This document shows positions 8,938 through 60,485 of a DNA stretch of 60,485 nucleotides, in pieces. The notes below the pieces were generated by a model that was not told where the DNA came from, did no database searches, and saw nothing but the letters and a program-made list of their open reading frames with translations. Made by a program: the position numbers and the translations under genes. The DNA comes from Candidatus Parcubacteria bacterium (GTDB lineage Bacteria; Patescibacteriota; Saccharimonadia; Saccharimonadales; 2-12-FULL-41-12). The stretch covers positions 1 to 60,485 of the forward strand of contig JAHWKM010000005.1 of NCBI GenBank assembly GCA_019347895.1, given 5' to 3'. Within the stretch, counting starts at the first letter, position 1; each line of letters starts with the position of its first letter.

Positions 8938-8981
8938 TTAAGTTTCTTTAAAAGTCTGCCTATCCTTGGAGGAACCAAGAC

Positions 8982-9360
8982 ATTTCGGCAGTACTTCGTA
9001 CCTTCCCCGACCCACTTTCTTGTGTTGACAAGAAAGTGGGCAAAGAAACGCTCGTCAGGTGATAAAACGCGACTGAAGCGAGATACCAGAATCATGGAAT
9101 TCTAATTATTGGGTTTGGGCATTGAGAGCCGTCCTGATTGGTGAGTGTCAAAAACACAATTACTAGCGAGGCAGTGTTAAGCCAATTTCTCTTTGGAAAT
9201 AATGCAAAATTGGTGAGTTTGCCGAGCATTGTGTCTTTTGACAATGAGCCAGTCAAGATGGTTCGACGCCCAAGAGCTTTTGCATTCTTTTGTCGGCACA
9301 AAAGAATGGACTTGGTTCTTGGTCGCAAGAACATGGCTTGGTTCTTCACTAGAAGAACAT
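8982..9360. repeat. Family I nested-palindrome element, locus 1
   Basis: Long hairpin ttgggc(9115)..gcccaa(9273) plus three short hairpins; 9265-9314 matches the reverse complement of 23858-23907 at 49/50. Confidence 0.85.
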
Positions 9361-9364
9361 GGTT

Positions 9365-10015
9365 TTATGGCGAAAATGTAAGGTCAGGCAAGATTATATT
9401 ATTGAAGTCTTTAAACCGGTCCGAAGCTTGGCTGGCAATAGTTATGGTTTTATCCCTTAGCGGCAGGACTATGACAGATTCAACCCTACCCTCTTCAACC
9501 TGCCCGTCAAATTTAACACCTACGACACCCGGTACTTTAGGCAATGAATACGCTACTGCCTTTAACAATCCATCCCGGACTTGGCCTTCGTATTTAGTTA
9601 TTGATTCATCATAAGACATACCTTCAACAGTTATTTTTAAAGCGTGCGGACTGTCATTCGCAGCCGATACAAACTTCGGGTTAAAGATATACTCCGCATT
9701 TTCCTCGTTTAGTATGTAGGAGCTCCAGGTTTTAGGATAGCTGACTTTTATACCCCCAAATTGTGCCGGCCCCTGGTATTCACTCAAAGGAAATTTCTCG
9801 CGCTCCAAAAATTCATTGTCTTTCTCTGTTGCGAGCTTTTCGTTAGCCACCTCTACGGCCGCTTCAATCTTTTGGTCGACATTATTTTTATAATCATTGC
9901 GCTCGTAAAATGCCCAGGCAGCGAAACCAAGTACTCCAAAAAAGCATACTGATGAAATAATCAGCGGTATTAATAAAATGTTCAAAGCGCCCTGTTCGCC
10001 GAGTTTACGCTTCAT
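9365..10015 (-). CDS. Membrane-anchored hypothetical protein, prepilin-like N-terminus
   Basis: EQG|ALNILLIPLII hydrophobic helix, then a soluble domain (VSYPKTWS). Confidence 0.55.
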   Translation of the reverse strand: MKRKLGEQGALNILLIPLIISSVCFFGVLGFAAWAFYERNDYKNNVDQKIEAAVEVANEKLATEKDNEFLEREKFPLSEYQGPAQFGGIKVSYPKTWSSYILNEENAEYIFNPKFVSAANDSPHALKITVEGMSYDESITKYEGQVRDGLLKAVAYSLPKVPGVVGVKFDGQVEEGRVESVIVLPLRDKTITIASQASDRFKDFNNIILPDLTFSP

Positions 10016-18548: not shown

Positions 18549-18639
18549 ACCTCTATTAACCCTTCTGTTAAAAATAAATATTACCTCAGATAACACTCTT
18601 TAGCAAGCCTCGGTTGATCTTTAATTGTATATAAAAGAC

Positions 18640-19200
18640 ATTTCGCACGCACTTCGTGCTTACAGCGAGATACTTTTCCCTGCAGCAGCAAAAGTATGCA
18701 AAAGTGCTGCAGCAGGTTACCAAACACGACTGGTTTGAGATACCAGGCTGGTTGGTTAGGCAAAAAACGTCCCTTCGGGGCCGGTCTTCGAATTTATTAT
18801 TAATATAAGATGATTCTCAGACTAGCTTTTGCCTAAGCCATTCCAACCAGCGCAGGTTCAAACCAATCGGTTTGGCAAGTGCTGGTTAAAAGCAGATGAG
18901 AAAACAAGTTTTTCTCAAATAATAAATAATGGCAATTCCATTTTTTGGGTTTGGGCATTATGGAGCGCCCTGATTGGCGAATGTCAAAAACACAATTAGC
19001 AGCGAGGCAGTGTCTAAGCCCCGCCCTCTATTGAATTAATTAAGGTGGGGTGAGTTTGCCGAGCGTTGTGTTTTTTGACAATGAGATAGTCAAGGTGCGT
19101 AATACTGCCCAATCGGTTTGGAATACCTTTGCCGAAACAAAGGTATTGATTTGCTTCTTTATCCAAAGAAGTATGGCTTGGTTCTTCGCCAGAAGAACAT
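18640..19200. repeat. Family I nested-palindrome element, locus 2 (two inverted arms)
   Basis: Right arm 18951-19200 aligns with 9115-9360. Left arm has gatacttttccctgcagcagcaaaagtat, the reverse complement of the hairpin near 24310-24338. Confidence 0.85.
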
Positions 19201-19203
19201 AAT

Positions 19204-20418
19204 TTATTGTTTTAAAAATCGTATAGCGGCGTCACGCTGCGGATCTTTTTTGGCTTCCGCGTCTTTATCGGTTAACTCGACTTTTTTGTCCGGTTCAATG
19301 CCTTCCTTATCGATATTGCGGCCGTTTGGCGTGAACCAGCGGGCTATAGTAACCTTTAACAGGCCGCCGAAATCAAGCGGTTTTACTTCTTGCACGCTGC
19401 CCTTGCCGTAGCTTTGTTCGCCAAATAAGGTAGCCGCATTGTTGTCCTTTAAGGCTCCCCCCACAATCTCGCTGGCGCTGGCGCTGCCTTCGTTTATCAA
19501 TACTGCCGTTTTTATTCCTCCTAGCATTGGGGTGTTTTGTGAAGTATAGGTCTTTATAACTACCTCATCTCGCTTTTCTTGCAGGATTGTGGCACCTTTT
19601 GGCAGCCAAATCTCTGAAACCCCAACCGATGCTTCCAGCAGGCCGCCGGGGTTGCCGCGCAGGTCCAAAATCACCTTATTCACCTGTTTGGCCTTAAAGT
19701 CTCTGGCGGCTTCTTTTACCAACTGGACAGTATCCTCGCCGAACCTGGTAATTTTTATAACTCCGATGTTTGACTCGAGAGTTTCAATTTCCACGCTCGG
19801 TATGGATATCTGGGCGCGGCTTACTTCTATATCCAGTTTTTCGCCGTTTCGAATTATGCCCAGCTTTACCTTCGTGCCTTTCGGCCCCCGTATTTTCTTG
19901 ACCGCTTCGGTAATAGATAAGTCATAGGCACTTTCTCCGTCGATTTCAGCGACTATATCTTTGGCTTTTATGCCGGTCTTGGCCGCCGGGAACCCTTCAA
20001 TCGGAGCTACGATTACAATCGCCTGTTCTTCCTTGCCCAGCTCGGCCCCGATACCCTCAAATGAACCGCTTAAACCTTCCTCAAAATCTTTGCTCTCCTC
20101 AGCATTCAAATATTCCGTGTAAGGGTCGCCGGAAGCCTTAACCAGCCCTTCCTTGAGCCCGTTGATCAATTCATCCGGGTCCAAATTCCCATCAAAACTA
20201 GCCTTGAGTTCGTCATATACTTCTTCGACGCCTTGGTAATTGAGTTTATTAGGCAAACGGTTGTTTTGGGAGGCCTCGTTTCGTTCGGTAGGCAAATTAA
20301 AGCTTATGACTCTTTGTTGTCCTAAAATAACACCAAGCGAAAAAACCAAGGCTATTAAAATTGCGCCTTTGAAAAAGTTTTTAGGCAACTTAAGTCGTGG
20401 TTTATATTTATTTTTCAA
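19204..20418 (-). CDS. ctpA: S41 carboxyl-terminal processing protease
   Basis: GDPYT, FEGIGA, PDZ domain, LDLRGNPGG, SASASEI, GKGSVQ. Confidence 0.93.
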   Translation of the reverse strand: MKNKYKPRLKLPKNFFKGAILIALVFSLGVILGQQRVISFNLPTERNEASQNNRLPNKLNYQGVEEVYDELKASFDGNLDPDELINGLKEGLVKASGDPYTEYLNAEESKDFEEGLSGSFEGIGAELGKEEQAIVIVAPIEGFPAAKTGIKAKDIVAEIDGESAYDLSITEAVKKIRGPKGTKVKLGIIRNGEKLDIEVSRAQISIPSVEIETLESNIGVIKITRFGEDTVQLVKEAARDFKAKQVNKVILDLRGNPGGLLEASVGVSEIWLPKGATILQEKRDEVVIKTYTSQNTPMLGGIKTAVLINEGSASASEIVGGALKDNNAATLFGEQSYGKGSVQEVKPLDFGGLLKVTIARWFTPNGRNIDKEGIEPDKKVELTDKDAEAKKDPQRDAAIRFLKQ

Positions 20419-21879: not shown

Positions 21880-22869
21880 CTATTTTCGGAGACGAAGTTT
21901 TTCTAATTTTTGGCGGAACATCGGATGCGACACCCGCAAATAGCGGTGAGTAGCAATGAGCGAAGAGACCACGCCGATAGCTATGCCGGCTCCTAGCTGC
22001 AGCAATAAGATCCACCAGAAGTTCGACGCAAAATAAGTATTGGTATATTGAAGATCCAAAAGTCCCAAGCTGGTCGCGCCAAATGCCTGGGACTGAAATA
22101 CAAATAATGAATTAATCAGCAGCAGAGAAATAACGGCGGATACTATGCCATAAAGCATGGCTTCCACTATAAAAGGACCTCTTATATACCAGGGGTTCGC
22201 GCCCAGCAGTCGCATGATGTTCAGCTCCTCGCGCCGGTTAAAAATAGCCATCTGAATGGTGTTAAATATCAGAAGCATGGAGATCACTGCGAAGATAACA
22301 ACACCCGCGAAGACTGCCCTCTTAAAAAAAGATGTGGCGTTGGTTATTTTATCTATGGCATCCTTGCGGCTGCCGGAGTATGAGGTTTCGGTATAAAGTT
22401 CCTTGACCTCCGGAGATTCTATGAGGGCTGTTATGCTTGCTATTTTATCGGGCTCATATTCATGCGGCTTGATTCGGACTGTCTCCGGCAAAGGGTTCTC
22501 TACCGAGGCCACGGCAATCAACGCGTCGGCATCCTGGTCGTTTTTTTTCTCTTTTCGGTAATCTTCCAGGGCTTTTTCTTTTGAAATGTATTCCACGGAT
22601 TTAACTTCAGGATTTTCTTGCAACTTTTCGAGCAATTCATTTCTCTGCTCTTCGTTCACTGAATCCTTTAAGTAAACAGATATGCCGATTTTGTCATTAA
22701 TTTGCTGAATGGTGTGATTGAAGGTCGCGTTGGCAATAACGGAAAACAAAACGATAGTAAGGGTTACGACCATAACTGCCGTGGCTGCCACGCTCAGGCT
22801 AATGTTGCGCACAAAGTTTACGCTACCGCTGCGAAATACTCTCGATAAGGTAATGAAACGCCTGTCCAT
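21880..22869 (-). CDS. ftsX: Cell division permease FtsX
   Basis: ENPLP, IFNTIQMAIFNRREE..IMRLLGA..IRGPF. Confidence 0.93.
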   Translation of the reverse strand: MDRRFITLSRVFRSGSVNFVRNISLSVAATAVMVVTLTIVLFSVIANATFNHTIQQINDKIGISVYLKDSVNEEQRNELLEKLQENPEVKSVEYISKEKALEDYRKEKKNDQDADALIAVASVENPLPETVRIKPHEYEPDKIASITALIESPEVKELYTETSYSGSRKDAIDKITNATSFFKRAVFAGVVIFAVISMLLIFNTIQMAIFNRREELNIMRLLGANPWYIRGPFIVEAMLYGIVSAVISLLLINSLFVFQSQAFGATSLGLLDLQYTNTYFASNFWWILLLQLGAGIAIGVVSSLIATHRYLRVSHPMFRQKLEKLRLRK

Positions 22870-22887
22870 ATTAGATTACACCTTTTC

Positions 22888-23060
22888 GATCTGCCTTACA
22901 CACTTGAGTGCCAGACACAATCCGCCCACGGCGGACGGACTGAGCCGTATAATTTATACGGCTCAGGAGTATCACAGGAGAAAATTGCGTCTGGCGCCAA
23001 GAAGCTGGCGGGGTTTTGGGCTCTGCCCGAAAGCGGGACAGCTGGTGTGTAAGGCAGATC
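22888..23060. repeat. Family II structured element between ftsE and ftsX
   Basis: Perfect 16-bp terminal IR gatctgccttacacac / gtgtgtaaggcagatc; internal 13-bp IR 22940-22966; homologous to 26762-26933 in the opposite orientation. Confidence 0.85.
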
Positions 23061-23742
23061 ACTCGTTATACCCGCTGTTAGCCCTATCGCTGACGATTTT
23101 GCCGTCTCTTATAGTCACCACGCGTCTTTTCAGACGGTTTACAATTTCTTGATTATGGGTAGTCAAAAGCACAGTCGTGCCGAATTTATTAATTCTTTCT
23201 AATACTTTTATAACGTCCCAGGCATGCTTCGGGTCAAGATTGCCGGTCGGTTCATCGGCTATTAATATCTTTGGCTGGCGGACAACCGCCCTGGCTATCG
23301 CTACCCGCTGCATTTCGCCTCCCGATAATTCGCGCGGATAATTCTTGGCCTTATTTTTAAGTCCGACAATATTTAATACTTTAGGCACGGTATAACGGAT
23401 TTCCCGGTTGGAATAACCGGCAATTTCCAGAGCGAACGCTACATTTTCAAAGACGGATTTATTGGGCAGCAATTTAAAATCCTGAAAAACCACGCCTATT
23501 TTTCGACGAAGCCTAGGAATATTTTTATCCTTTAACCGTTCATAATCTATTCCGCCGATAATAATTTTGCCGCTTGAAGGTTTCTCTTCCCTAGTCAAAA
23601 TTTTAAGCAGCGTGGATTTGCCGGCACCACTTGGACCTACGATAATCACGAATTCCCTCGGTTCAACATGCAAGCTAATCCGGTCCAGGGCAGCCATCTT
23701 CCTAGGCTGGTATGTTTTAGTTACTCGATCCAAAAGAATCAT
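23059..23742 (-). CDS. ftsE: Cell division ATP-binding protein FtsE
   Basis: GPSGAGKST, VVFQDFKLL, LSGGE, ADEPTGNLDP; start MILLDRV. Confidence 0.95.
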   Translation of the reverse strand: MILLDRVTKTYQPRKMAALDRISLHVEPREFVIIVGPSGAGKSTLLKILTREEKPSSGKIIIGGIDYERLKDKNIPRLRRKIGVVFQDFKLLPNKSVFENVAFALEIAGYSNREIRYTVPKVLNIVGLKNKAKNYPRELSGGEMQRVAIARAVVRQPKILIADEPTGNLDPKHAWDVIKVLERINKFGTTVLLTTHNQEIVNRLKRRVVTIRDGKIVSDRANSGYNE

Positions 23743-23811
23743 TAGCACTATTATAGCAAAAACGCTCATCTTTAGATAAAGAAGTAAAATCTTATTTATA
23801 ATAAAGAACGA

Positions 23812-24365
23812 ATTTCCGGTACTTCGTACCTACAGCCATCTTCTTTCGACAAAGAAGCAAGTCCATTCTTTTGTGCCGACAAAAGAATGCAAAAACTCTT
23901 GGGCGTCGATCCATCATGACTGTCTCATTGCCAAAAGCAACAACGGCTTGAAAAACTCCCTTTGGTCGGCTTCGCTCTTTATTAATTAATAAAGATGTCG
24001 CTCAGCTCGCTTTCAAGCCTTAAAGTTGTTGTTTTGACACTCGTCAATCAGGACGGCTCTCTATGCCCAAACACGGGAGAATGGAATTTCCATTACTATT
24101 TAATTTGAGAAATTGAAGAATTTCTCATCTACTTTTGGTCAGGCTCTGGAAGTTCCTGATGAGTGAATGTCTAAAGCACAATTTCTAGCGAGGAAGTGTC
24201 TGAAGCTTTCCATCCTATGGATCAATAAAGGAAGGCTGAGTTTTCCGAAGCATTGTGCTCTTTGACAATGAACTCCTCAAGAACTGGAAGCCGCCTGCGG
24301 CATTTTGGGATACTTTTGCTGCTGCTGGGAAAAGTATCGACTTGTTTCTTGGTCACAAGAAAATG
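23812..24365. repeat. Family I nested-palindrome element, locus 3 (two full inverted arms)
   Basis: Left arm (about 23834-24135) is the reverse complement of the locus 1/2 right arms; right arm (24140-24365) is a diverged forward copy. Confidence 0.85.
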
Positions 24366-24368
24366 ACC

Positions 24369-25445
24369 TTATTTAATAGAATAATCAGTATAGGCTTCGA
24401 GGAAGTCATTTAGGTCGCCGTCCAGGACCTTGTCCGGGTCTTTGCTCTCATAACCCGTCCGCAAATCTTTTACCTGTTTATAGGGGTGTAGGACATAGTT
24501 TCGTATTTGGTTGCCCCAGGCGGCCTGTTCATTCGGGCCCTTCAGTTGGGAAATTTTTTCGGCATGCTGCTCTATTTTCAATTGGGCCAGTTTGGAGCGC
24601 AAGATTGTCATAGCTGTTTCTTTATTCTGTAGCTGCGAACGCTCGTTTTGGATACTGACAACAATACCGGTTGGCAAATGCGTAACGCGCACGGCTGAAT
24701 CGGTAGTGTTTACGCTCTGGCCACCTCGTCCGCCAGCCCGGAAAACATCGATTTTCAGCTCGCTGTCATCTATTGGCAGGGATTCAGGTTCGTCAATTTC
24801 GGGCATAATGTCGACTTTGGCAAAGCTGGTTTGGCGCAAGCTTTGGGCGTTAAATGGGCTCTGCCGGACCAGACGATGGACACCATGCTCGCCTTTTAGC
24901 TTGCCGTAGGCCAGCGGACCAGAAATTTCTAAACTTACACTTTTTAGACCGGCCTCATCGCCGATAGATTCATCTAAAATCCTGGCTTTGTAGCCTTGCG
25001 CCTCCGCCCAGCGCAAATACATCCGCTGCAGCATAGCCGCCCAGTCCTGAGCGTCAACGCCGCCAGCCCCAGCCCGTATATCCAAAAGAACGTTATGTTC
25101 GTCGTACGGACCGCTAAAAGCCAGGTCCGTGTGCATACTCGTATATTTTTTTCGCAAAATTTTAAATTGTTTTTCTATGCCAAGCCGCAAAGACTCATCG
25201 TGCATCTCCAGCAATTCCTTTAGTTCCGCTGACTCTTTTTGCAGCTGTTCCCAAGCGTTAATTTTTTCTTCCAACCGTGCCAGCTGCTGCATTACCTTGA
25301 TAGCTTTTTGATTATCGTTCCAAAATCCCGGTTCTTCGCTTTTTTTCTTTAATTCTATTTGCTTCTTTTTTATTTTTTCCAAATCAATAGCCTCAACATC
25401 TTTTTGAATATTGCCGGCTAATTCGTTTATTTGCTGGGCGTCCAT
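24369..25445 (-). CDS. prfB: Peptide chain release factor 2 (single ORF, no frameshift)
   Basis: SPF motif (RQSPFN), GGQ, WGNQIRNYV. Confidence 0.96.
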   Translation of the reverse strand: MDAQQINELAGNIQKDVEAIDLEKIKKKQIELKKKSEEPGFWNDNQKAIKVMQQLARLEEKINAWEQLQKESAELKELLEMHDESLRLGIEKQFKILRKKYTSMHTDLAFSGPYDEHNVLLDIRAGAGGVDAQDWAAMLQRMYLRWAEAQGYKARILDESIGDEAGLKSVSLEISGPLAYGKLKGEHGVHRLVRQSPFNAQSLRQTSFAKVDIMPEIDEPESLPIDDSELKIDVFRAGGRGGQSVNTTDSAVRVTHLPTGIVVSIQNERSQLQNKETAMTILRSKLAQLKIEQHAEKISQLKGPNEQAAWGNQIRNYVLHPYKQVKDLRTGYESKDPDKVLDGDLNDFLEAYTDYSIK

Positions 25446-25473
25446 GGTATCTGGCTTAATTCTTTGGCAGCTT

Positions 25474-26760
25474 TCAATTCCAAAGCGCGCTTAATTTTTC
25501 GGCCAGTTTATCGGCTGGGCGGCGGTCCGTGCCGCCTAAAATTCCCAAGCCCCAATTTTTATCCGTGAATAAATCTTGTACGCCCTTAACGATTTGCTGT
25601 TTGGTTACGGCCTTTATATGCTGCGGTGTTTTAGTATACTCCTCGATTTTGTCCTCAAAGAAATACCGGCCCATGTAGCCCGCGGATAACCCGCCAACTG
25701 TCTGAACGTCGCGCTGGAATCGCCCCAGCCGGTATTGTTTAGCGGCCTTAAGATCCTTTTCGGTTATCTTGCCGTCTTGTATTTTCTTTATCTCAGTAAT
25801 GATAATATCAAATAATTTCGAGGCATTTTTAGGCTGGACCTGAGCTCCAAACCACCAGTTGGTGGTATATTTGTCAAAAAATATGTTGGAATTCATACCG
25901 TAAACTAAGCCTCTCTCACGGGCTTTGCCCAGTACCCGCGAGTGCAAGGTCTCGGTTAGCATGCTGTTAACTAAGCTCATGGCATACAGTTCCTTTTCTC
26001 TCATGCGCCGAGCCATAAAGGTATCAAAATAAAAATAAAAGTTATCGACTGTTTCATTAGGAATAAATAGCGGTTTTTTGAGGCTCGTTGGTCGTTCTTC
26101 CGGTAATTTTTTACGACCGCCGCCTTTTGGTAAACCAATTGCGGCTAGACGTTTTTTAATATGATTGCGCCGGTTTAGAGTTAGATTGCCGGCGATGACG
26201 AATCTGATATTGCTGGTGTAGTGCGTTTTTTTATAGTGGTCAACTAAATCCTGGCAGGTGACGTTATCCATAAGCTCCAAGCGTTTTTGATAGGTGGCTG
26301 AATGGTAGCCGTAAGCTTCACGCAAGGCCAAGCTGAGGTGCCGGAAATGATTATTCGACCGAGCCATGAGCTCTTCCCGGACATTGCCTACCTCGGCCTT
26401 AAATTCTTCTTCGGCAAAAAGCGGTTCCGCCAAAGAAAGAATCATCCGGTCTATTATGCGCTGCCACTCAAAATCAGCGCACTCGGCTTCATAAGTTATG
26501 TCGTAATGGCCGGTACTGGCATTGGAATACGCTCCGTTTTTTTCAAAATCCGCCTGAAAATCCCGGGCTCTCGGAAATTTCTTATTGGCGCCTAAAATGA
26601 CATGTTCCATCAGATGCGGCGCCTCCCATTTTGCTTCCGGAACCAGATATTCTCCCGCCCGGACATTTATATAAAAAGTCATGACGCTGGCATCGGGGAC
26701 ATTAATAAATAGCCCCCTGGCCCCGTTATCGAATCTAGCTTCAGAAACCCAATGCTTCAT
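25474..26760 (-). CDS. M16 (pitrilysin) family zinc peptidase
   Basis: HLMEH inverted zincin motif, NAST, RERGLVYG; start MKHWVSE. Confidence 0.88.
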   Translation of the reverse strand: MKHWVSEARFDNGARGLFINVPDASVMTFYINVRAGEYLVPEAKWEAPHLMEHVILGANKKFPRARDFQADFEKNGAYSNASTGHYDITYEAECADFEWQRIIDRMILSLAEPLFAEEEFKAEVGNVREELMARSNNHFRHLSLALREAYGYHSATYQKRLELMDNVTCQDLVDHYKKTHYTSNIRFVIAGNLTLNRRNHIKKRLAAIGLPKGGGRKKLPEERPTSLKKPLFIPNETVDNFYFYFDTFMARRMREKELYAMSLVNSMLTETLHSRVLGKARERGLVYGMNSNIFFDKYTTNWWFGAQVQPKNASKLFDIIITEIKKIQDGKITEKDLKAAKQYRLGRFQRDVQTVGGLSAGYMGRYFFEDKIEEYTKTPQHIKAVTKQQIVKGVQDLFTDKNWGLGILGGTDRRPADKLAEKLSALWN

Positions 26761-26761
26761 C

Positions 26762-26933
26762 CAGATCTCCTGCACCATTCTGCCCGCCAAACTGCAAAGC
26801 CGTCTGCCCCGCAGGATTCTTGAGCTAAAACGCGATTTTCTTCTGCGGTACTCAAGGCGACGTACATATTTCCGTACGTCTTTTTCCGTTCCTCAAAGAG
26901 AAATCGCTTTTTAACTTCAAGTGCAGAATTCTG
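26762..26933. repeat. Family II structured element between secA and the M16 peptidase
   Basis: Closing stem ctgcac/gtgcag, inner gacgtac..gtacgtc (26859-26880); aligns with the ftsE-ftsX element. Confidence 0.75.
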
Positions 26934-26938
26934 ATACA

Positions 26939-29545
26939 TTACTTGCGCTTCTTGCTCTTCTTTCTTCTTTGACGCTCGGCTTTTCGCGATTTTTTAATCT
27001 TATTGTGGGATCTCCTGAGTTCGCTATTTTGTTTCTTTTCAGAGGCGAAATGGGCTTCTTCGAATTCCTGGCCTTCTATAATTTTGTCGGCATTATCGAC
27101 AGATCCGCGAGCGGCGCGCGTAAGTTCGGTCTCTACCGAACGGTTAAGCTCGGACTGCTCGAGCGGACGCGCATGAAAGAGCGCCCGGACTACATCGTGC
27201 CGCAAGTCCCGCTGCATTTGCTCAAAAATAATTTGCGACTGTTTTCGATATTCTACCAAAGGGTCTTTTTGGCCGACACCCATCCAGTGGATTCCTTCGC
27301 GCAGATGCTCCATATTCTCCAGATGCTGCATCCAGAAATTATCCAAGATCTGCAAATACGCATCCCGCTCGACTTTTCGTAATATTTCAGGGGTGAAGCG
27401 CTCTTCTTGCTCTTTATAAAGTTCATCGGCCGCCTTGATCAGTTCCTCTTCAAACTTCTCGGCCGGCTGGTCAAACAAATGATCCAAAGTACCCTCGTCA
27501 AAAGGAAAAACTTCCTTCACGAAAGCCTCGTAATCTTCACTCGCGGCTTGCGGCGAATTGGCCAGGTCTTTGGCCTCTGAATGAATGAAAATTTTAATAC
27601 GCTTGCTGATGTCGGCTTGTTTTAGAATTTCCGAACGCATCATATAGGTAGCTTTGCGGTGGCGATTCATCACATCGTCGTATTTAACGACGTTTTTTCT
27701 GGCATCAAAGTTAAAGCCTTCTACCTTCTTTTGCGCGCCCTCCAGGCTTTTGCTAATAACCCGATTTTCAACCGGCGTGTCATCATCTACGTTCATGCGG
27801 TCCATAACCTTCATTATTCTCTCGCCGCCGAACACACGCATCAAATGGTCTTCGCAGGAAACAAAAAATTGTGTCGCGCCCGGATCTCCCTGGCGGCCGG
27901 AGCGTCCGCGCAGCTGGTTGTCGATCCGCCGGGCCTCATGCCGCTCCGAGCCGACTACGAATAAACCGCCGGCCTTTTTGGAGTCCTCATCAAGTACAAT
28001 ATCTGTTCCGCGGCCGGCAATATTGGTAGCCAGCGTGACAGCACCGCGCGTTCCGGCCTTGGCAATAATCGCGGCTTCCCGCTCGTTGTTTTTTGCGTTT
28101 AATACCTGGTGGGGCACCTCAGCTTTTTTTAGCAGGCTGGTGAGTTTCTCATTCTTTTCGATTGACGCCGTTCCTATTAAAACCGGCTGGCCGTTTTTAT
28201 GCAGTTTCTTTACTTCGGCTATCAAGGCTTTGAACTTGCCGGCCTCATTTTTAAAGATTTTGTCCGGTAAATCTTTACGTATGAGTTTTTTATGGGGCGG
28301 AATCTCCAGAACCTCAAGTTTGTAGATCATATGGAATTCTTCAGCCTCGGTCAACGCCGTACCGGTCATACCCGACAATTTTTTATACAGGCGGAAGTAG
28401 TTCTGAAAGCTGATTGTCGCTAAGGTTTGGGATTCTTCTTGGATTTCGACGTTTTCTTTGGCTTCGATTGCCTGATGGAGTCCTTCGTTATAGCGCCGGC
28501 CGGCTAGCAAGCGTCCGGTAAATTCGTCGACTATCACTATTTCGCCGCTGCTGGTGACCACATAGTCTTTGTCGCGCTTAAAAAGTGCTTGGGCGCGCAA
28601 TGCCTTGTCCAGGTGGTAAATTGTTCGGATATTGCCGGTACCATAAAGATTATCGATACCTAATATTTTTTCGACTAAATCGACGCCGTCATCATTTAGG
28701 GCAACTTGTTTGCGCTTTTCGTCGACCTCATAATGCTTGTCGCGCTCCAGCTGGCGAACCACTTTGGCGAATTGCTGGTAAGATGTGCTGCTGGCTGTAG
28801 AAGGGGCTGAAATAATCAGCGGTGTGCGGGCCTCGTCAATTAAAATCGAATCCACCTCGTCAACAATAGCAAAATTTAAATCTCGCTGGCGCAATTGTTC
28901 AATCTCACGAACCATATTGTCGCGCAAATAATCAAATCCGAATTCATTGTTGGTGCCGAAGGTTATATCAGCCCGGTAAGCTTCCTGGCGGGTGCATGGT
29001 TTTAAATGGTGCATTCTTGGGTCGTCATGTTCTTCGTTTTTATATTTGGAATCAAATATAACTGATTTCTCAGGTATAATGGCTCCGACGCTAAGGCCTA
29101 AAAAGTCATAAACTTCACCCATCCAGCCGGTGTCGCGCTGCGCCAGGTAATCATTAACCGTGACCACATGCACGCCTTTGCCTTCCAGCGCGTTCAAATA
29201 AGCCGGCAAGGTAGAGGTAAGAGTTTTACCCTCGCCGGTTTTCATCTCCGTAACAGCACCTGTATGCAGGCCCATTCCGCCGATCAGCTGTACGTCGAAA
29301 TGCCGCTGCCCTAACGTCCTTCTAGCTGCTTCTCTGACGGTTGCAAAAGCTTCGGGTAATATTTCATCAAGCATTTTGCCTTTTTCTAATTCACTTTTGA
29401 ATTTATCGGTTTGGTTCCTAAGATCTGTATCGGATAATTTTTTGATTTTCGGCTCAAGGTCATTGATTTCGCTAACGCGTTTAGTTAGCTTTTTTACCGT
29501 CCTGATTTGCGGGTCGCCAAAAACTTTTTTAAGAATTTTTTTCAT
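26939..29545 (-). CDS. secA: Preprotein translocase ATPase SecA
   Basis: EMKTGEGKT, VTVNDYLA, IVDEVDSILIDEARTPL, QLRGRSGRQGDPG. Confidence 0.98.
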   Translation of the reverse strand: MKKILKKVFGDPQIRTVKKLTKRVSEINDLEPKIKKLSDTDLRNQTDKFKSELEKGKMLDEILPEAFATVREAARRTLGQRHFDVQLIGGMGLHTGAVTEMKTGEGKTLTSTLPAYLNALEGKGVHVVTVNDYLAQRDTGWMGEVYDFLGLSVGAIIPEKSVIFDSKYKNEEHDDPRMHHLKPCTRQEAYRADITFGTNNEFGFDYLRDNMVREIEQLRQRDLNFAIVDEVDSILIDEARTPLIISAPSTASSTSYQQFAKVVRQLERDKHYEVDEKRKQVALNDDGVDLVEKILGIDNLYGTGNIRTIYHLDKALRAQALFKRDKDYVVTSSGEIVIVDEFTGRLLAGRRYNEGLHQAIEAKENVEIQEESQTLATISFQNYFRLYKKLSGMTGTALTEAEEFHMIYKLEVLEIPPHKKLIRKDLPDKIFKNEAGKFKALIAEVKKLHKNGQPVLIGTASIEKNEKLTSLLKKAEVPHQVLNAKNNEREAAIIAKAGTRGAVTLATNIAGRGTDIVLDEDSKKAGGLFVVGSERHEARRIDNQLRGRSGRQGDPGATQFFVSCEDHLMRVFGGERIMKVMDRMNVDDDTPVENRVISKSLEGAQKKVEGFNFDARKNVVKYDDVMNRHRKATYMMRSEILKQADISKRIKIFIHSEAKDLANSPQAASEDYEAFVKEVFPFDEGTLDHLFDQPAEKFEEELIKAADELYKEQEERFTPEILRKVERDAYLQILDNFWMQHLENMEHLREGIHWMGVGQKDPLVEYRKQSQIIFEQMQRDLRHDVVRALFHARPLEQSELNRSVETELTRAARGSVDNADKIIEGQEFEEAHFASEKKQNSELRRSHNKIKKSRKAERQRRKKSKKRK

Positions 29546-38503: not shown

Positions 38504-38651
38504 CTTAAATTCTCCCTTATTTCCCTTTGCAGATTACTATATCATAAGAGTAGTATAAAAGCATGAGTAATAAGACTACAGTCTACGCACTTGCTAAGAA
38601 CGGCTTGCAAAGTAGAGCTTTGCCCGGCTTAGGAGGCGTGGTGTGTAAGCT

Positions 38652-39173
38652 GTGAAGGCCACTTTGGCTGGCGGTTGTTTCTGGTGCACGGAAGCGGTTT
38701 TTCAGGAAGTAAAAGGAGTACAATCAGTAGTTTCCGGGTATAGCGGCGGACGAAGCGATAATCCCACGTATGAGCAAATACATTCTGAAGATACCGGCCA
38801 CGCCGAGTGCGTCCAGGTCACGTTTGATCCGGCAGTTATAAGTTACGAAGAAATTCTTCAAGTTTTTTACTATACGCATAATCCAACCACGCTCAATCAA
38901 GACGGGGCTAATTATGGTGCCGAATATCGGTCAGTGATTTTTTACCATGACGCCGAGCAAAAAATGATAGCCGAAGACGTGAGTAAAAATTTCGCGGCGC
39001 AAATTTGGGATGACCCGATTACGACCCAAATAGTGCCCTTTGAAAAGTTTTACCCGGCCGAAGATTATCATCAAAACTTCTTTAAAAACAATCCAAGCCA
39101 AGCTTATTGCCAGCTAATAATCAACCCAAAGCTAGAAAAATTCCGCAAAAAATTCAAGTCACTTTTAAAGTAA
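38652..39173 (+). CDS. msrA: Peptide methionine sulfoxide reductase A
   Basis: GGCFWC, SGYSGG, GHAE, FYPAEDYHQ, YC. Confidence 0.96.
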   Translation: MKATLAGGCFWCTEAVFQEVKGVQSVVSGYSGGRSDNPTYEQIHSEDTGHAECVQVTFDPAVISYEEILQVFYYTHNPTTLNQDGANYGAEYRSVIFYHDAEQKMIAEDVSKNFAAQIWDDPITTQIVPFEKFYPAEDYHQNFFKNNPSQAYCQLIINPKLEKFRKKFKSLLK

Positions 39174-57099: not shown

Positions 57100-57120
57100 A
57101 GGTCGGACCTATAACAGATA
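57100..57120 (+). repeat. REP-like flank (left) of the RAYT gene
   Basis: aggtcggacctataacagata; 19/21 identical to the reverse complement of 57687-57707. Confidence 0.75.
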
Positions 57121-57165
57121 ATAGGTATACAATTTTTACATTTTTATCTGTTAACTGTCAGCAAG

Positions 57166-57646
57166 TTAATGCTTAATCTCTTCTAGTTTTCTCTTATACT
57201 CTTCATAATCATAGACAAATTCTATGTATTTTTCTCTATCTTCGTGCATATCGAGTACCTTACTGGTCTTTAACCATTCTGGTTCATTGCCCCGTCGATA
57301 GTAGTCAATGCTCGAGTATGGATATCGTTTCCAGCTTCTTGGATTTAAATGTATATACCGACTAATATGGGTCAGGTAGGTATCGCTGCTAATGCGTGAT
57401 GCTTTATAGCGACCATCGAACAAAGCGCCGGAACGTTTGTATTTTAAGTTGAAATAACGACTGTAACTAATCATTAGGCTTTTCATAAATAAGCTAAGCG
57501 TACTCTTGTCCTTCTGATAAACCAATAAATGGAAATGATTTCTCATTAAACAATAGGTGAGCAATTCTATCCCTGCTCAATCCGCGAGCATAAACATGAT
57601 AATAAGACTCAGGAGCATCAAAACGAATAATATTTGGTGAAGGCAT
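57166..57646 (-). pseudogene. REP-associated tyrosine transposase (RAYT / Y1 HUH), frameshifted by an internal deletion
   Basis: N-terminus MPSPNIIRFDAPESYYHVYARG (ATG 57646) is out of frame with GIELLTYCLMRNHFHLL..YFN..G.LF.GRYK..RYIHLNP..YPYSS. Confidence 0.8.
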
Positions 57647-57686
57647 AATAAAATTACAATAGTAAATATCTAAATTGCAATTTCAC

Positions 57687-57707
57687 TATCTGTTTGAGGT
57701 CCGACCT
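57687..57707 (-). repeat. REP-like flank (right) of the RAYT gene
   Basis: tatctgtttgaggtccgacct, inverted copy of 57100-57120. Confidence 0.75.
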
Positions 57708-57878: not shown

Positions 57879-60485
57879 TTATAGCGAGCCTAAGCTACCC
57901 GTTATTACCCAGTTAGCGCCGTCACTGGTAATCTGCCGAGTTGTCCACTGCGTACCTATGGCGGTGGTGGCATTGCCGTCAATGGTTTCAGTACCGTCCG
58001 GGTCCATTGTTACGGTATTCAAACTGGAATCAATCTTTTTAATGGTGTAGGTGCGGCCATTGATACCAACAGCTGACGGCAAGCTAATGACAATCGAGCC
58101 ACCCCCTGCATCACCTAAGATAACCGAGTCGGAGGCGGTAGCGGTGTAGTTGGCGGTTTTGGTGGTAATGGCGGTGGTGATGTTGGCTGCGATAAAGCTG
58201 TCGTCAGTCTTCAGCGTGTTGGCCGCACTGCGGTAGAGGTTGGTGTCGGTACCAAAGTACAGGCCGCCGCTGGCAGTTGTAGTGTCGGTACCGACCGTCA
58301 GGATGCCGTTGGCAGGCACGGCGGCCGGACCGACGGCCAGGCGCTGATTGGTGGTGTCGGCTACCAGCAGGTTCTGTCCGGCGGCATTCTGGATATGGAA
58401 AGCGGTAGAGGAGTCGGAACGGTTTTTGAAGATAGCCTCGCCGTTGTTGTTGATTTGAAAGTTAGTACTGTAATCTGTGGTATTTAGAAACTTAAAGGAA
58501 TCAGACTGTACCTGAATGTCTCCTCCGGCGTTGTAATTGCCCAGCTGGATAGAGCTTGTGCCTGAAAGGTATTTTAAGGTGGCGTTGCCAGTACTGCCAT
58601 CAAGAGTAAGTGTCTTATCGGCGCTTAGATTGATATCAGCATTGGCTATAATTTTTCCATCATTAGTGTTTACGCTAAGCAAATTAGTCCCTGCGGCGTT
58701 TTGGACTTGGAAGGCAGTGGCGGAGTTTGTGGCAGTTTGGATACTAAAACTATCATCCGTCTTCAGCACGTTGGCGGCCGAGCGGTAGAGGTTGGTGTCG
58801 GTGCCAAACGTAATACCTCCGGCAGCGGCGGTGTCAGTATCTGCGCCGATATTTATTCTGGAAATCGTCTGGCTGCTGCCAACTTGCAGCTTGCCTTCGA
58901 TAAGGTTCTTGGCAGTCGCACCAGCCGAGAAAAGATTATAGCTATTGGAAGAGCCGACACCTGACTGGTCTTGGATGTAGAGGCCGTAGTTATTGGTGAA
59001 AGTACCACCACCGGAATTAGACGCGGATTGGATGTGTACGCCGTACCCGTCGGTGATGGTTCCGGTGCCAGCGTTCCCTACTATCGCGTTAACGCCTTTT
59101 GCGCTCGTAATAGTTCCGCTACTAGAGTTATAGATAAAATTATTTGATCCTTTGGCGTCAGTTACCGTACCGCTAGATACGTTTTGAGCCGTGAGAAAAG
59201 CACCGCTCAAAAAATCGACACTGCCGGTTCCCCGATGAGTGCCGCCAATGTTGGCGCCTTCCAGAACATAAAAGTTTTGAATATTACCACTTTGGGAGTT
59301 GGCTAAAAGCTGGGCGCCACGGAAGCTTGAGCTAGAAGCGGCAGCCGGGTTACCAGTAATACTGCTGTAGATAGCTTCCCTACCGCCGCCTGCCGTATCG
59401 GTGCGAGTTTCTTCAATGTTAACGGTTGTAGTGCTAAATATATTGGCTGTTGGGCCAAAGGCTGCCCGGCCGGCTACATCAAGATTACCTGCGAAGTTTG
59501 AAGTACCCGTCCCCTGCACCGTCAGATTGGAGCCGGTACCGTTGAGAACAAAGCTGTCATCGGTCTGCAGGGTGTCGGCGGCAGAGCGGTATAAGTTGGT
59601 GTCGGTAGCTGCCGTGCCGTCTCCAAACAGCAGTGCTCCGTCTTGGCGCAGCACGAAGCGGTTAAAGGCGTCGCCACTGACACCGGCACTGAGCGCGCTG
59701 TCGGTGGCGCTGCTCCGGCTAATGTTGAACTGGTCGTTGGTGGCGAGCATATCCGCGCCTCCGCGGAACAATACGGTATCCACTACACCTGCACCATCAC
59801 CCCACCAGTGATTACCATTGCCCTGGATGTAGAAACTAAGCTGGGGGTTTGTGCTGTTGTATGTACTAAATGCAATGTCGGCGGCGTTCCCCCGGTAGAC
59901 GCGGAATTGATCGTCGGTCTGCAGCAGATTAGCCGCTGAACGGTACAGATTCGTATCTGTACCAAAGTACAGGCCGCCAGCCGCTGTAGTGGTGTCTGTG
60001 CCGACAGTAAGAACACCGCCTGCCGGTACGGCAGCCAATCCTACGGCCAGGCGCTGGTTGGTAGTGTCGACTACCAGCAGGTTGCTCCCCGCCGCATTCT
60101 GTACCCGGAAGGCGGTGGTGGAATCAGTGGTGTTCTTGAACAGCCCGCTGCCATTAACCGTCAGATCACCTCCCGTAGTGTTGGTGGTGTTAGGAGTATA
60201 GGCACTGGTGGCCTGTCCGGTGTCGTTGATGGTGGTGGCGGTGACGCTGGTAGCCAGTGAAGTACTGGTAGTACCTTTTAAGACATCGTAGCTGGTGGCG
60301 TTAGCTACGGCTGTCCAGGAGATGGTGTTGTAGTTGGTGGCATCAAGGATGGCGTTGCCGGTGCTAGTGGTACCGGCCGGTCCGGGGATGGTAGCGCCGT
60401 TGGCGTTTTTAGCCACAATGAAGTAGTCGTAGGTAGTAGAGCCGATAGTACCAACGTTGGTAACCGTAGGAGCAGACGGAGTAGC
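57879..60485 (-). CDS. Large repeat-rich surface/fibre-like protein, partial (5' end beyond window)
   Basis: Frame is open to the window edge; rich in G/T/S/N/A; repeated DTNLYRSAAxxLxTDD and STTAFxVQNAAG modules. Confidence 0.75.
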   Translation of the reverse strand, partial: ATPSAPTVTNVGTIGSTTYDYFIVAKNANGATIPGPAGTTSTGNAILDATNYNTISWTAVANATSYDVLKGTTSTSLATSVTATTINDTGQATSAYTPNTTNTTGGDLTVNGSGLFKNTTDSTTAFRVQNAAGSNLLVVDTTNQRLAVGLAAVPAGGVLTVGTDTTTAAGGLYFGTDTNLYRSAANLLQTDDQFRVYRGNAADIAFSTYNSTNPQLSFYIQGNGNHWWGDGAGVVDTVLFRGGADMLATNDQFNISRSSATDSALSAGVSGDAFNRFVLRQDGALLFGDGTAATDTNLYRSAADTLQTDDSFVLNGTGSNLTVQGTGTSNFAGNLDVAGRAAFGPTANIFSTTTVNIEETRTDTAGGGREAIYSSITGNPAAASSSSFRGAQLLANSQSGNIQNFYVLEGANIGGTHRGTGSVDFLSGAFLTAQNVSSGTVTDAKGSNNFIYNSSSGTITSAKGVNAIVGNAGTGTITDGYGVHIQSASNSGGGTFTNNYGLYIQDQSGVGSSNSYNLFSAGATAKNLIEGKLQVGSSQTISRINIGADTDTAAAGGITFGTDTNLYRSAANVLKTDDSFSIQTATNSATAFQVQNAAGTNLLSVNTNDGKIIANADINLSADKTLTLDGSTGNATLKYLSGTSSIQLGNYNAGGDIQVQSDSFKFLNTTDYSTNFQINNNGEAIFKNRSDSSTAFHIQNAAGQNLLVADTTNQRLAVGPAAVPANGILTVGTDTTTASGGLYFGTDTNLYRSAANTLKTDDSFIAANITTAITTKTANYTATASDSVILGDAGGGSIVISLPSAVGINGRTYTIKKIDSSLNTVTMDPDGTETIDGNATTAIGTQWTTRQITSDGANWVITGSLGSL

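Follow-up and report, generated by a model that had tools for sequence, protein, structure and literature searches.

How can folded inserts of about 180 nucleotides (nt) settle at the junctions between genes in a genome that has little room for them? The question is raised by a window of 60,485 nt (the whole stretch of DNA analysed here, positions 1 to 60,485 of contig JAHWKM010000005.1 of assembly GCA_019347895.1, from a Candidatus Parcubacteria bacterium placed in the Saccharimonadales), which carries one such insert between an ftsE-like gene and ftsX and another between secA and a gene for an M16-family peptidase, each spanned by a small open reading frame (ORF). Genomes of Saccharibacteria and other Patescibacteria are very small and densely packed, and a 180-nt insertion at a coupled junction should harm. 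The answer that we consider probable, taken as a whole, is that both inserts belong to a mobile, strongly folded family of palindromic repeats that has spread through Candidatus Saccharimonadales and that would persist in gene-dense genomes by being translatable: in one orientation relative to the following gene a copy would serve as a leader or relay ORF, and in the other its frame is open regardless of context.

The two inserts are homologous and mutually inverted, as the original prediction had it: blastn aligns them with 64.6% identity over 96 nt, and both are full-length matches of one covariance model. In what follows P denotes the C-rich model strand (GCACC...CTCAAGTGC) and M its complement. 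Copy 1, at ftsE/ftsX (22882..23063, minus strand; model E value 1.4e-30), consists of the core and a copy-specific closing stem, GATCTGCCTTAC / GTAAGGCAGATC, and its mRNA strand is P. Copy 2, at secA/M16 (26757..26941, plus strand; E 2.9e-28), has P on the plus strand of the window, and the mRNA thus carries the G-rich strand M. Each copy is crossed by the stop-to-start ORF that had been described for it. The ORF in copy 1 (22871..23062, minus strand, 63 amino acids) opens with a GTG that overlaps the ftsE TGA (GAGTGATC) and closes with a TAA one base ahead of the ftsX ATG, and the one in copy 2 (26757..26939, minus strand, 60 amino acids) opens with an ATG set on the secA stop (TAATG) and ends on the peptidase ATG at 26760 (ATGA). 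The stop/start overlap or few-base spacing by which coupled gene pairs are recognised was therefore found at both ends of both ORFs, as GTGA and TAA-n-ATG in copy 1 and as TAATG and ATGA in copy 2. Neither ORF product has a Pfam match, and the two peptides are unrelated (BLASTP E 0.16), again as claimed. Both copies fold far better than dinucleotide shuffles of themselves, the ftsE/ftsX copy at -92.1 kcal/mol with z scores of -9.6 and -9.8 on its two strands, the secA copy with z scores of -4.7 (plus) and -5.0 (minus).

These inserts belong to a large family. The genome (907 kb in 27 contigs, 92.6% complete) holds 36 copies or fragments according to iterated nhmmer, and a covariance model made with 20 full-length copies likewise returned 36; a weak partial match lies in the window at 38569..38659 (minus strand, E 2.9e-4, 31 bits). 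The core spans 153 model positions (about 150 nt). Across the 20 copies, 89.7% of the cells of the paired columns are standard pairs compared with 64.1% in column shuffles, none of 500 of which reached that level, sliding the partners by 1-3 columns drops pairing to 30-42%, and 42 of the 49 pairs show compensatory, two-sided change, which bears out the proposal that the stems differ in sequence and still pair. Pairing continues past the conserved core into flanks of copy-specific sequence, which are enriched for inverted repeats (mean 6.00 compared with 4.55, and at least 6 in 55% versus 15%). The same model matches 51 of 61 related genomes and 33 of 39 genera, the number of copies per genome ranging from 0 to 35, and the closest relatives of the M16 gene come from records titled Candidatus Saccharimonadales or Saccharibacteria. 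Elsewhere in this genome (G000:C22:54907-55300) two copies stand head to head in one intergenic region, and consecutive ORFs (GTG...TAA, then ATG 3 nt on, ...ATGA) jointly bridge the upstream stop and the likely start of the next gene.

Since the orthologous junctions of relatives are empty, both window copies are insertions specific to this lineage, at junctions that most relatives keep tight. At ftsE-ftsX the genes are adjacent and the junction is element-free in 29/29 relatives' loci (two of these loci hold a copy elsewhere); the aligned gap measures 5-48 nt in 17 of the 18 such junctions displayed. The exception, G041 (L045, G041:C3), carries an unrelated 121-nt insert bounded by a 13-nt inverted repeat, CCCGTTAGAACCC / GGGTTCTAACGGG, which the family HMM does not detect. 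The secA-M16 junction is likewise element-free in 29/29 loci, many of which read TAATG or pass directly from stop to start, and the element was found at none of 64 further Saccharibacteria loci; a member of another genus (G014) has a copy of its own there, in the same orientation, reading TAATG...TAG GTT GTG. The peptidase begins MKH.. here as it does in relatives, whose starts read ATGAAGCAT / ATGAAACAT / GTGAGACAT. The end of ftsE reads ..TAC GAG CTT TAG TT ATG in a genome of the same genus and ..AAC GAG TGA followed by the element here, with the protein ending ..YNE* in this genome and ..YEL* or ..YEI* in relatives. Judging from the same-genus junction, the insertion took the place of the final codon together with the stop and the spacer, and of the closing stem neither arm existed beforehand. 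An origin of the closing stem by insertion into a pre-existing hairpin or terminator is ruled out for copy 1, as the empty ftsE-ftsX junctions of relatives hold neither arm.

The comparison within the genus also speaks to mobility. The same-genus genome has 9 elements in eight loci, and for only 2 of these elements does this genome have a copy at the corresponding junction, so gains and losses of the family occur on a species time scale. From this coming and going of a dispersed family between close relatives we infer that its copies move, in agreement with the description of the inserts as mobile hairpin elements. At one common site (G000:C5:28745-28896 and L116, G001:C10) the copies are opposite in orientation and only about 50% identical, which means that either each was inserted independently or one flipped in place between the arms of the closing stem.

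Translatability is the property that would let such a family live among closely spaced genes. Stop trinucleotides are depleted on both strands, with 78 against 142 +/- 8 expected on P and 147 against 221 +/- 9 expected on M, and this depletion would let copies survive in frame within genes as well as at junctions. Three copies of this genome lie in frame within genes, those for GlmS, UDP-glucose dehydrogenase and MPG (methylpurine) glycosylase. Residues 1-59 and 125-667 of GlmS align with residues 1-59 and 67-609 of the E. coli structure 4amv, and the alignment gap places the insertion exactly at the element; in the other two enzymes the element divides the Pfam domains. Other genera also have the GlmS and glycosylase insertions at the same place, and since the 52-residue element-derived insert of GlmS occupies the same position in two genera (G000:C11:13413-15416; L148, G012), this essential enzyme has long carried it. 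Among the 99 copies analysed further (21 from this genome that pass a length filter and 78 unique copies from the 80 best-scoring matches in other genomes), 12 lie within an ORF on the M strand and three on the P strand, at least two of the three being the same copies. The elements had been presented as intra-operon inserts, a picture that overlooks the copies in frame inside genes.

The evidence for more than passive tolerance comes from the M orientation, that of secA/M16. We counted an ORF as bridging if its start lay between -10 and +20 nt of the upstream stop, if it crossed the core, and if its own stop lay between -7 and +12 nt of a downstream start or it was fused to that start. Bridging or fused ORFs were present in 16/28 junction copies in M orientation, compared with 1.47 +/- 1.15 when the inner core was shuffled (maximum 6 in 200 shuffles) and with 7/28 when the inner core was flipped in place. 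Where a gene lies downstream, the strand facing it is M in 48 copies and P in 20 (p 9e-4). M has an open frame across the core in 38/48 copies followed by a gene start and in 13/39 copies that are not (Fisher p 2.4e-5), and after copies that share flanks were merged the figures were 25/32 and 12/31 (p 0.002). The two groups are alike in HMM score, in P-strand openness (37/48 versus 29/39) and in the total number of M stops (5.8 versus 6.3), which rules out general decay as the cause of the closed M frames and leaves the groups differing in which frames the stops occupy.

The geometry of these M copies is uniform. The ORFs begin 6 to 27 nt ahead of the core, with an ATG that lies within the 5' arm of the closing stem or beside it, and their stops fall at +4 or at +10 to +15. 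Some end with a TAG or TAA two bases past the core, with 3-4 bases to the next ATG or GTG (GTAGGTCATG, GTAGCTATGG, ATAGGTTGTG), others with a TGA that overlaps the next start (ATGA, GTGA), and some have a GGAGG between core and start. The closing stem holds the start codon of the ORF on one side and the TAG/TAA or the ATGA overlap on the other. In the 35 tight M copies the predicted pairing probability is 0.85 for the start codon of the next gene and 0.81 for the region from -13 to -4 ahead of it. In copy 2 an AGGAG stands 7 nt ahead of the peptidase ATG, within the closing stem, and the corresponding predictions are 0.62 for the start codon and 0.79 for the -13..-4 region.

These features suggest how a copy with M as its mRNA strand might act. 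The element would provide a built-in leader or bridging ORF, with its start within the 5' arm of the closing stem or just ahead of it, one frame open through the core and a stop a few bases before the next start or a TGA overlapping it. The start codon of the next gene, often with its GGAGG, would be base-paired in the 3' arm. We infer that ribosomes translating the element ORF would unfold the hairpin and then reinitiate at the neighbouring start, which would restore the coupling that a 180-nt insertion otherwise breaks. With P as the mRNA strand, the element usually just follows a stop codon. A stronger form of this explanation, which we put forward tentatively, is that of an element with its own relay: in one orientation, inserted beside a start codon, it would lock the initiation region of the gene in the closing stem and at the same time supply the start-ORF-stop cassette, leaving the host gene obligatorily coupled to the translation of the element. 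Dozens of Saccharibacteria housekeeping genes would then have gained an element-borne leader ORF, possibly one that tunes expression to ribosome supply.

Several observations weigh against the explanation as a whole. The sample was picked by model score, its related genomes are not independent, and flanking genes and starts were called by one fixed, simple ORF rule and not taken from annotation. When five more distant genomes were analysed (60 further loci fetched, 25 copies past the filter, small numbers throughout), the M frame was open in 3/8 copies with a following gene and in 6/16 without, and the start of several genes lay further off, behind an apparent -10 box of its own; given this negative replication, the context effect has support only in the subfamily nearest this genome. 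Target-site duplications were not found, the longest direct match in the 30-nt flanks being 4.67 compared with 4.50 for mismatched flanks, and at least 6 in 16% compared with 13%. A mobilising enzyme was not found either among the families searched (Y1_Tnp, PF07282 and RVT_1).

The P orientation, that of ftsE/ftsX, tells on the same side. Only 2/13 P junctions are bridged, compared with 0.65 +/- 0.73 in shuffled copies, which is not above chance; the two are the ftsE/ftsX copy and C5:23999, both of this genome, and in relatives a bridging ORF is present in 0/9 P junction copies. About 77% of copies have an open P strand in any context (16/20 with a following gene, 58/76 without, p 1.0), so the bridge at ftsE/ftsX may have arisen by accident at this site or as an adaptation to it. 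The relay mechanism therefore leaves one of the window ORFs unexplained. Read by eye, an AAGGTG stands unpaired 9 nt ahead of the ftsX ATG (pairing of the region about 0.5), and for that reason ftsX may need no relay; a predicted pairing of about 0.5 holds for the 13 P copies whose next start sits further away. The claim that the elements persist as translational relays, for which bridging ORFs were to be compared with shuffled controls, is accordingly borne out statistically for M in this lineage, where they are in excess, and is not supported for P. That they persist by selective survival agrees with the context dependence of the M frame, but the layout of start and stop within the closing stem makes bridging in part a built-in property of the family.

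What, then, would a copy in P orientation do? It might be a terminator-like or insulating hairpin after the stop of one gene, with the next gene expressed from its own promoter, for ftsX a promoter within the 18 nt that follow the closing stem. At most of the 13 P junctions inspected by eye the element directly follows a stop codon, which lies 5-13 nt ahead of the core, and a TATAAT- or TAGAAT-like box, a further point against a relay, stands 6-10 nt ahead of the next ATG (L087, L088, L102, L142, L151, G000:C4:725-878 and others); a TGTAAT, also read by eye, stands 5 nt ahead of the ftsX ATG. The stem is not followed by a run of T, however, and a promoter and terminator scan of 22700-27100 gave counts at the level of shuffled sequence, with nothing between the elements and the next genes and no two-hexamer consensus promoter at ftsX. 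The -10 boxes are also probably older than the insertions. We regard this account of the ftsE/ftsX orientation as unlikely. The P junctions with TATAAT-like boxes are probably not operon-internal, and the position of the boxes in the sequence suggests that leaderless mRNAs, made from boxes 6-10 nt ahead of the ATG, may be common in these Saccharibacteria.

The same results bear on a neutral account, in which the family is poor in stops for reasons of its fold or its movement, its copies fill tiny gaps, and open frames come to touch neighbouring genes with no translational role. The openness of P regardless of context, the chance level of bridging in P, the 7/28 M junctions still bridged after an in-place flip and the replication set with no context effect are all what such a by-product would produce. 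It would have to explain, however, why openness on M depends on context despite equal stop counts and model scores, which requires retention of specific frames, why 16/28 M junctions are bridged when shuffles never exceeded 6, and why the positions of starts and stops are so uniform. Although it deserves to be taken seriously, we judge it less than likely, and we continue to favour a translatable family with a relay function in the M orientation.

The very strong covariation would also fit structured RNA, and the copies could be cis-acting elements (regulatory leaders, attenuators, stabilisers or processing sites) under selection at the RNA level, their ORFs being incidental. Among pairs of copies at the same site in different genomes, 16/21 have a partner that folds better than at least 95% of equally substituted random copies and five do not (12 of 33 pairs, less than 55% identical, were set aside), and the downstream initiation region is predicted to be sequestered. 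Relative to genes, however, the copies have either orientation, and some lie in frame within coding sequence. G-U and A-C mismatches show no bias to the transcribed strand (sense 14/12, antisense 38/25), an absence of asymmetry that led us to reject RNA-level selection on that strand. One-sided G-U changes are rare beside double changes, and the constraint is for this reason more likely to act on DNA, or on both strands, than on one RNA. Rfam gave no match at the gathering score in the window, and none at E up to 1 for six copies. A role as structured RNA is in our view quite improbable.

Less probable still is that the element ORFs encode functional small proteins, even though ORFs of 55-65 codons recur at many copies. 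The frame used is frame 0 in 11/14 anchorable junction frames and frame 1 in 6/6 anchorable in-gene frames, the peptides of the two window copies share neither sequence nor a Pfam family, and the Atlas hits, all sub-threshold, have scores of about 0.81 that match those of shuffled sequences. The suggestion that such elements are a source of de novo small proteins is thus unsupported, as the frames differ between copies and yield no Pfam or meaningful Atlas match.

A Y1_Tnp (IS200/RAYT-type) gene occurs twice in this genome. One copy, broken, lies in the window as a TGA-interrupted frame at 57349-57591 (minus strand) between 44-nt inverted repeats at 57100-57143 and 57664-57707, and the other, intact-looking, is at G000:C20:46923-47147. 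A Y1/HUH transposase as mobiliser does not fit, as its presence is uncorrelated with that of the element over 61 genomes (Y1_Tnp in 18, element in 51), and G001, G006, G022, G026 and G044 have 15-31 element copies and no Y1_Tnp. Beyond Y1_Tnp, the families searched in this 92.6%-complete genome were Cas12f1-like_TNB (TnpB-type, PF07282) and reverse transcriptase (RVT_1), and neither was found. A target-site duplication of ATGA or TCATGA, which might have given rise to the two start codons, was dismissed as well: direct repeats are not in excess, even though a few copies agree with it (L084, C11:7707), and no duplication is visible when the two window junctions are compared with empty sites.

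The window holds other repeats. A second, longer family (about 400-550 nt) has three copies, at 8977-9365, 18635-19205 and 23805-24340 (D3, D5-D7, I1, I3-I6), the third of which runs opposite to the others and takes up the space between the release-factor gene and ftsE. The region 58193-60140 has internal direct repeats (230 nt twice, at 73% identity, and a 64-nt unit four times) that look like repeated coding domains. The genes that flank the two inserts, all on the minus strand, are the ftsE-like ABC ATPase gene (23059..23769, Pfam ABC_tran 3e-38) and ftsX (21880..22869, FtsX_ECD and FtsX), and secA (26939..29545, SecA_DEAD 2.9e-126) and the M16-family peptidase gene (25474..26760, Peptidase_M16 and M16_C).

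The family suggests a way for selfish DNA to spread in such compact genomes: most of its frames can be translated and, in one orientation, it would re-create the hand-over from stop to start that the insertion breaks. If this is true, annotation of these genomes must reckon with false small ORFs, wrong starts and unexplained 50-residue inserts such as that of GlmS, the copies offer a natural set of insertions for studying termination-reinitiation, and the 'palindromes in proteins' phenomenon of Rickettsia extends to a second, unrelated lineage with reduced genomes.

Among known systems the closest in kind is the Rickettsia palindromic element (RPE). RPEs are dispersed palindromes some 150 bp long, each with an ORF, that often lie in frame in unrelated housekeeping or metabolic genes without destroying them, according to the available part of a 2024 review (PMC10969869). 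Compared by description, the family here appears to be an analogue and not a member, since its host belongs to the Saccharimonadales, judging by the record titles of relatives. It resembles the RPEs as a dispersed palindromic repeat (36 copies, 153-position core, z from -4.7 to -9.8) and in its in-frame insertion into genes that stay intact (those for GlmS, UDP-glucose dehydrogenase and MPG glycosylase; 12 of 99 copies in an M-strand ORF). It differs in belonging to another phylum and in its variable frames, RPEs being described in that part of the review with a conserved peptide and with no mention of an orientation-specific start-ORF-stop-start layout where genes begin. Our literature searches turned up no description of such repeats in Saccharibacteria, nor of repeats with that layout.

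[quoted passage not shown] The family here is like them a short folded repeat at gene junctions, with ORFs, and the same part of PMC10969869 describes short, non-autonomous folded repeats of this kind in the intergenic regions of operons, some with ORFs. Unlike MITEs it shows no target-site duplication and no related autonomous element among those searched, its closing stems are copy-specific, and its copies display strong covariation and not near-identity. With the REP/REPIN-RAYT system it shares hairpin repeats outside genes and a Y1_Tnp-type gene in the genome, but the element and Y1_Tnp do not co-occur (51 and 18 of 61 genomes), and the element is about five times the length of a REP.

For the proposed mode of action the nearest parallels are coupled genes and leader ORFs. 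Translational coupling requires overlaps or very short distances, as the accessible parts of PMC10666635 and PMC6728339 state, and the proposed relay starts from this premise. ATGA, TAATG, GTGA and TAG-N3-ATG stand at the ends of the element ORFs as they do in termination-reinitiation; the difference is that the partner in this putative coupling, read from the sequence, would be an ORF on an inserted repeat instead of a resident gene. In Salmonella, the available text of PMC8092293 describes a leader ORF whose translation opens a structure hiding the ribosome-binding site of the next gene, and the predicted sequestration of the start in the closing stem would be relieved by translation of the upstream ORF in a similar way. 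Such leaders are regulators of a single locus, whereas the family described here is a dispersed repeat.

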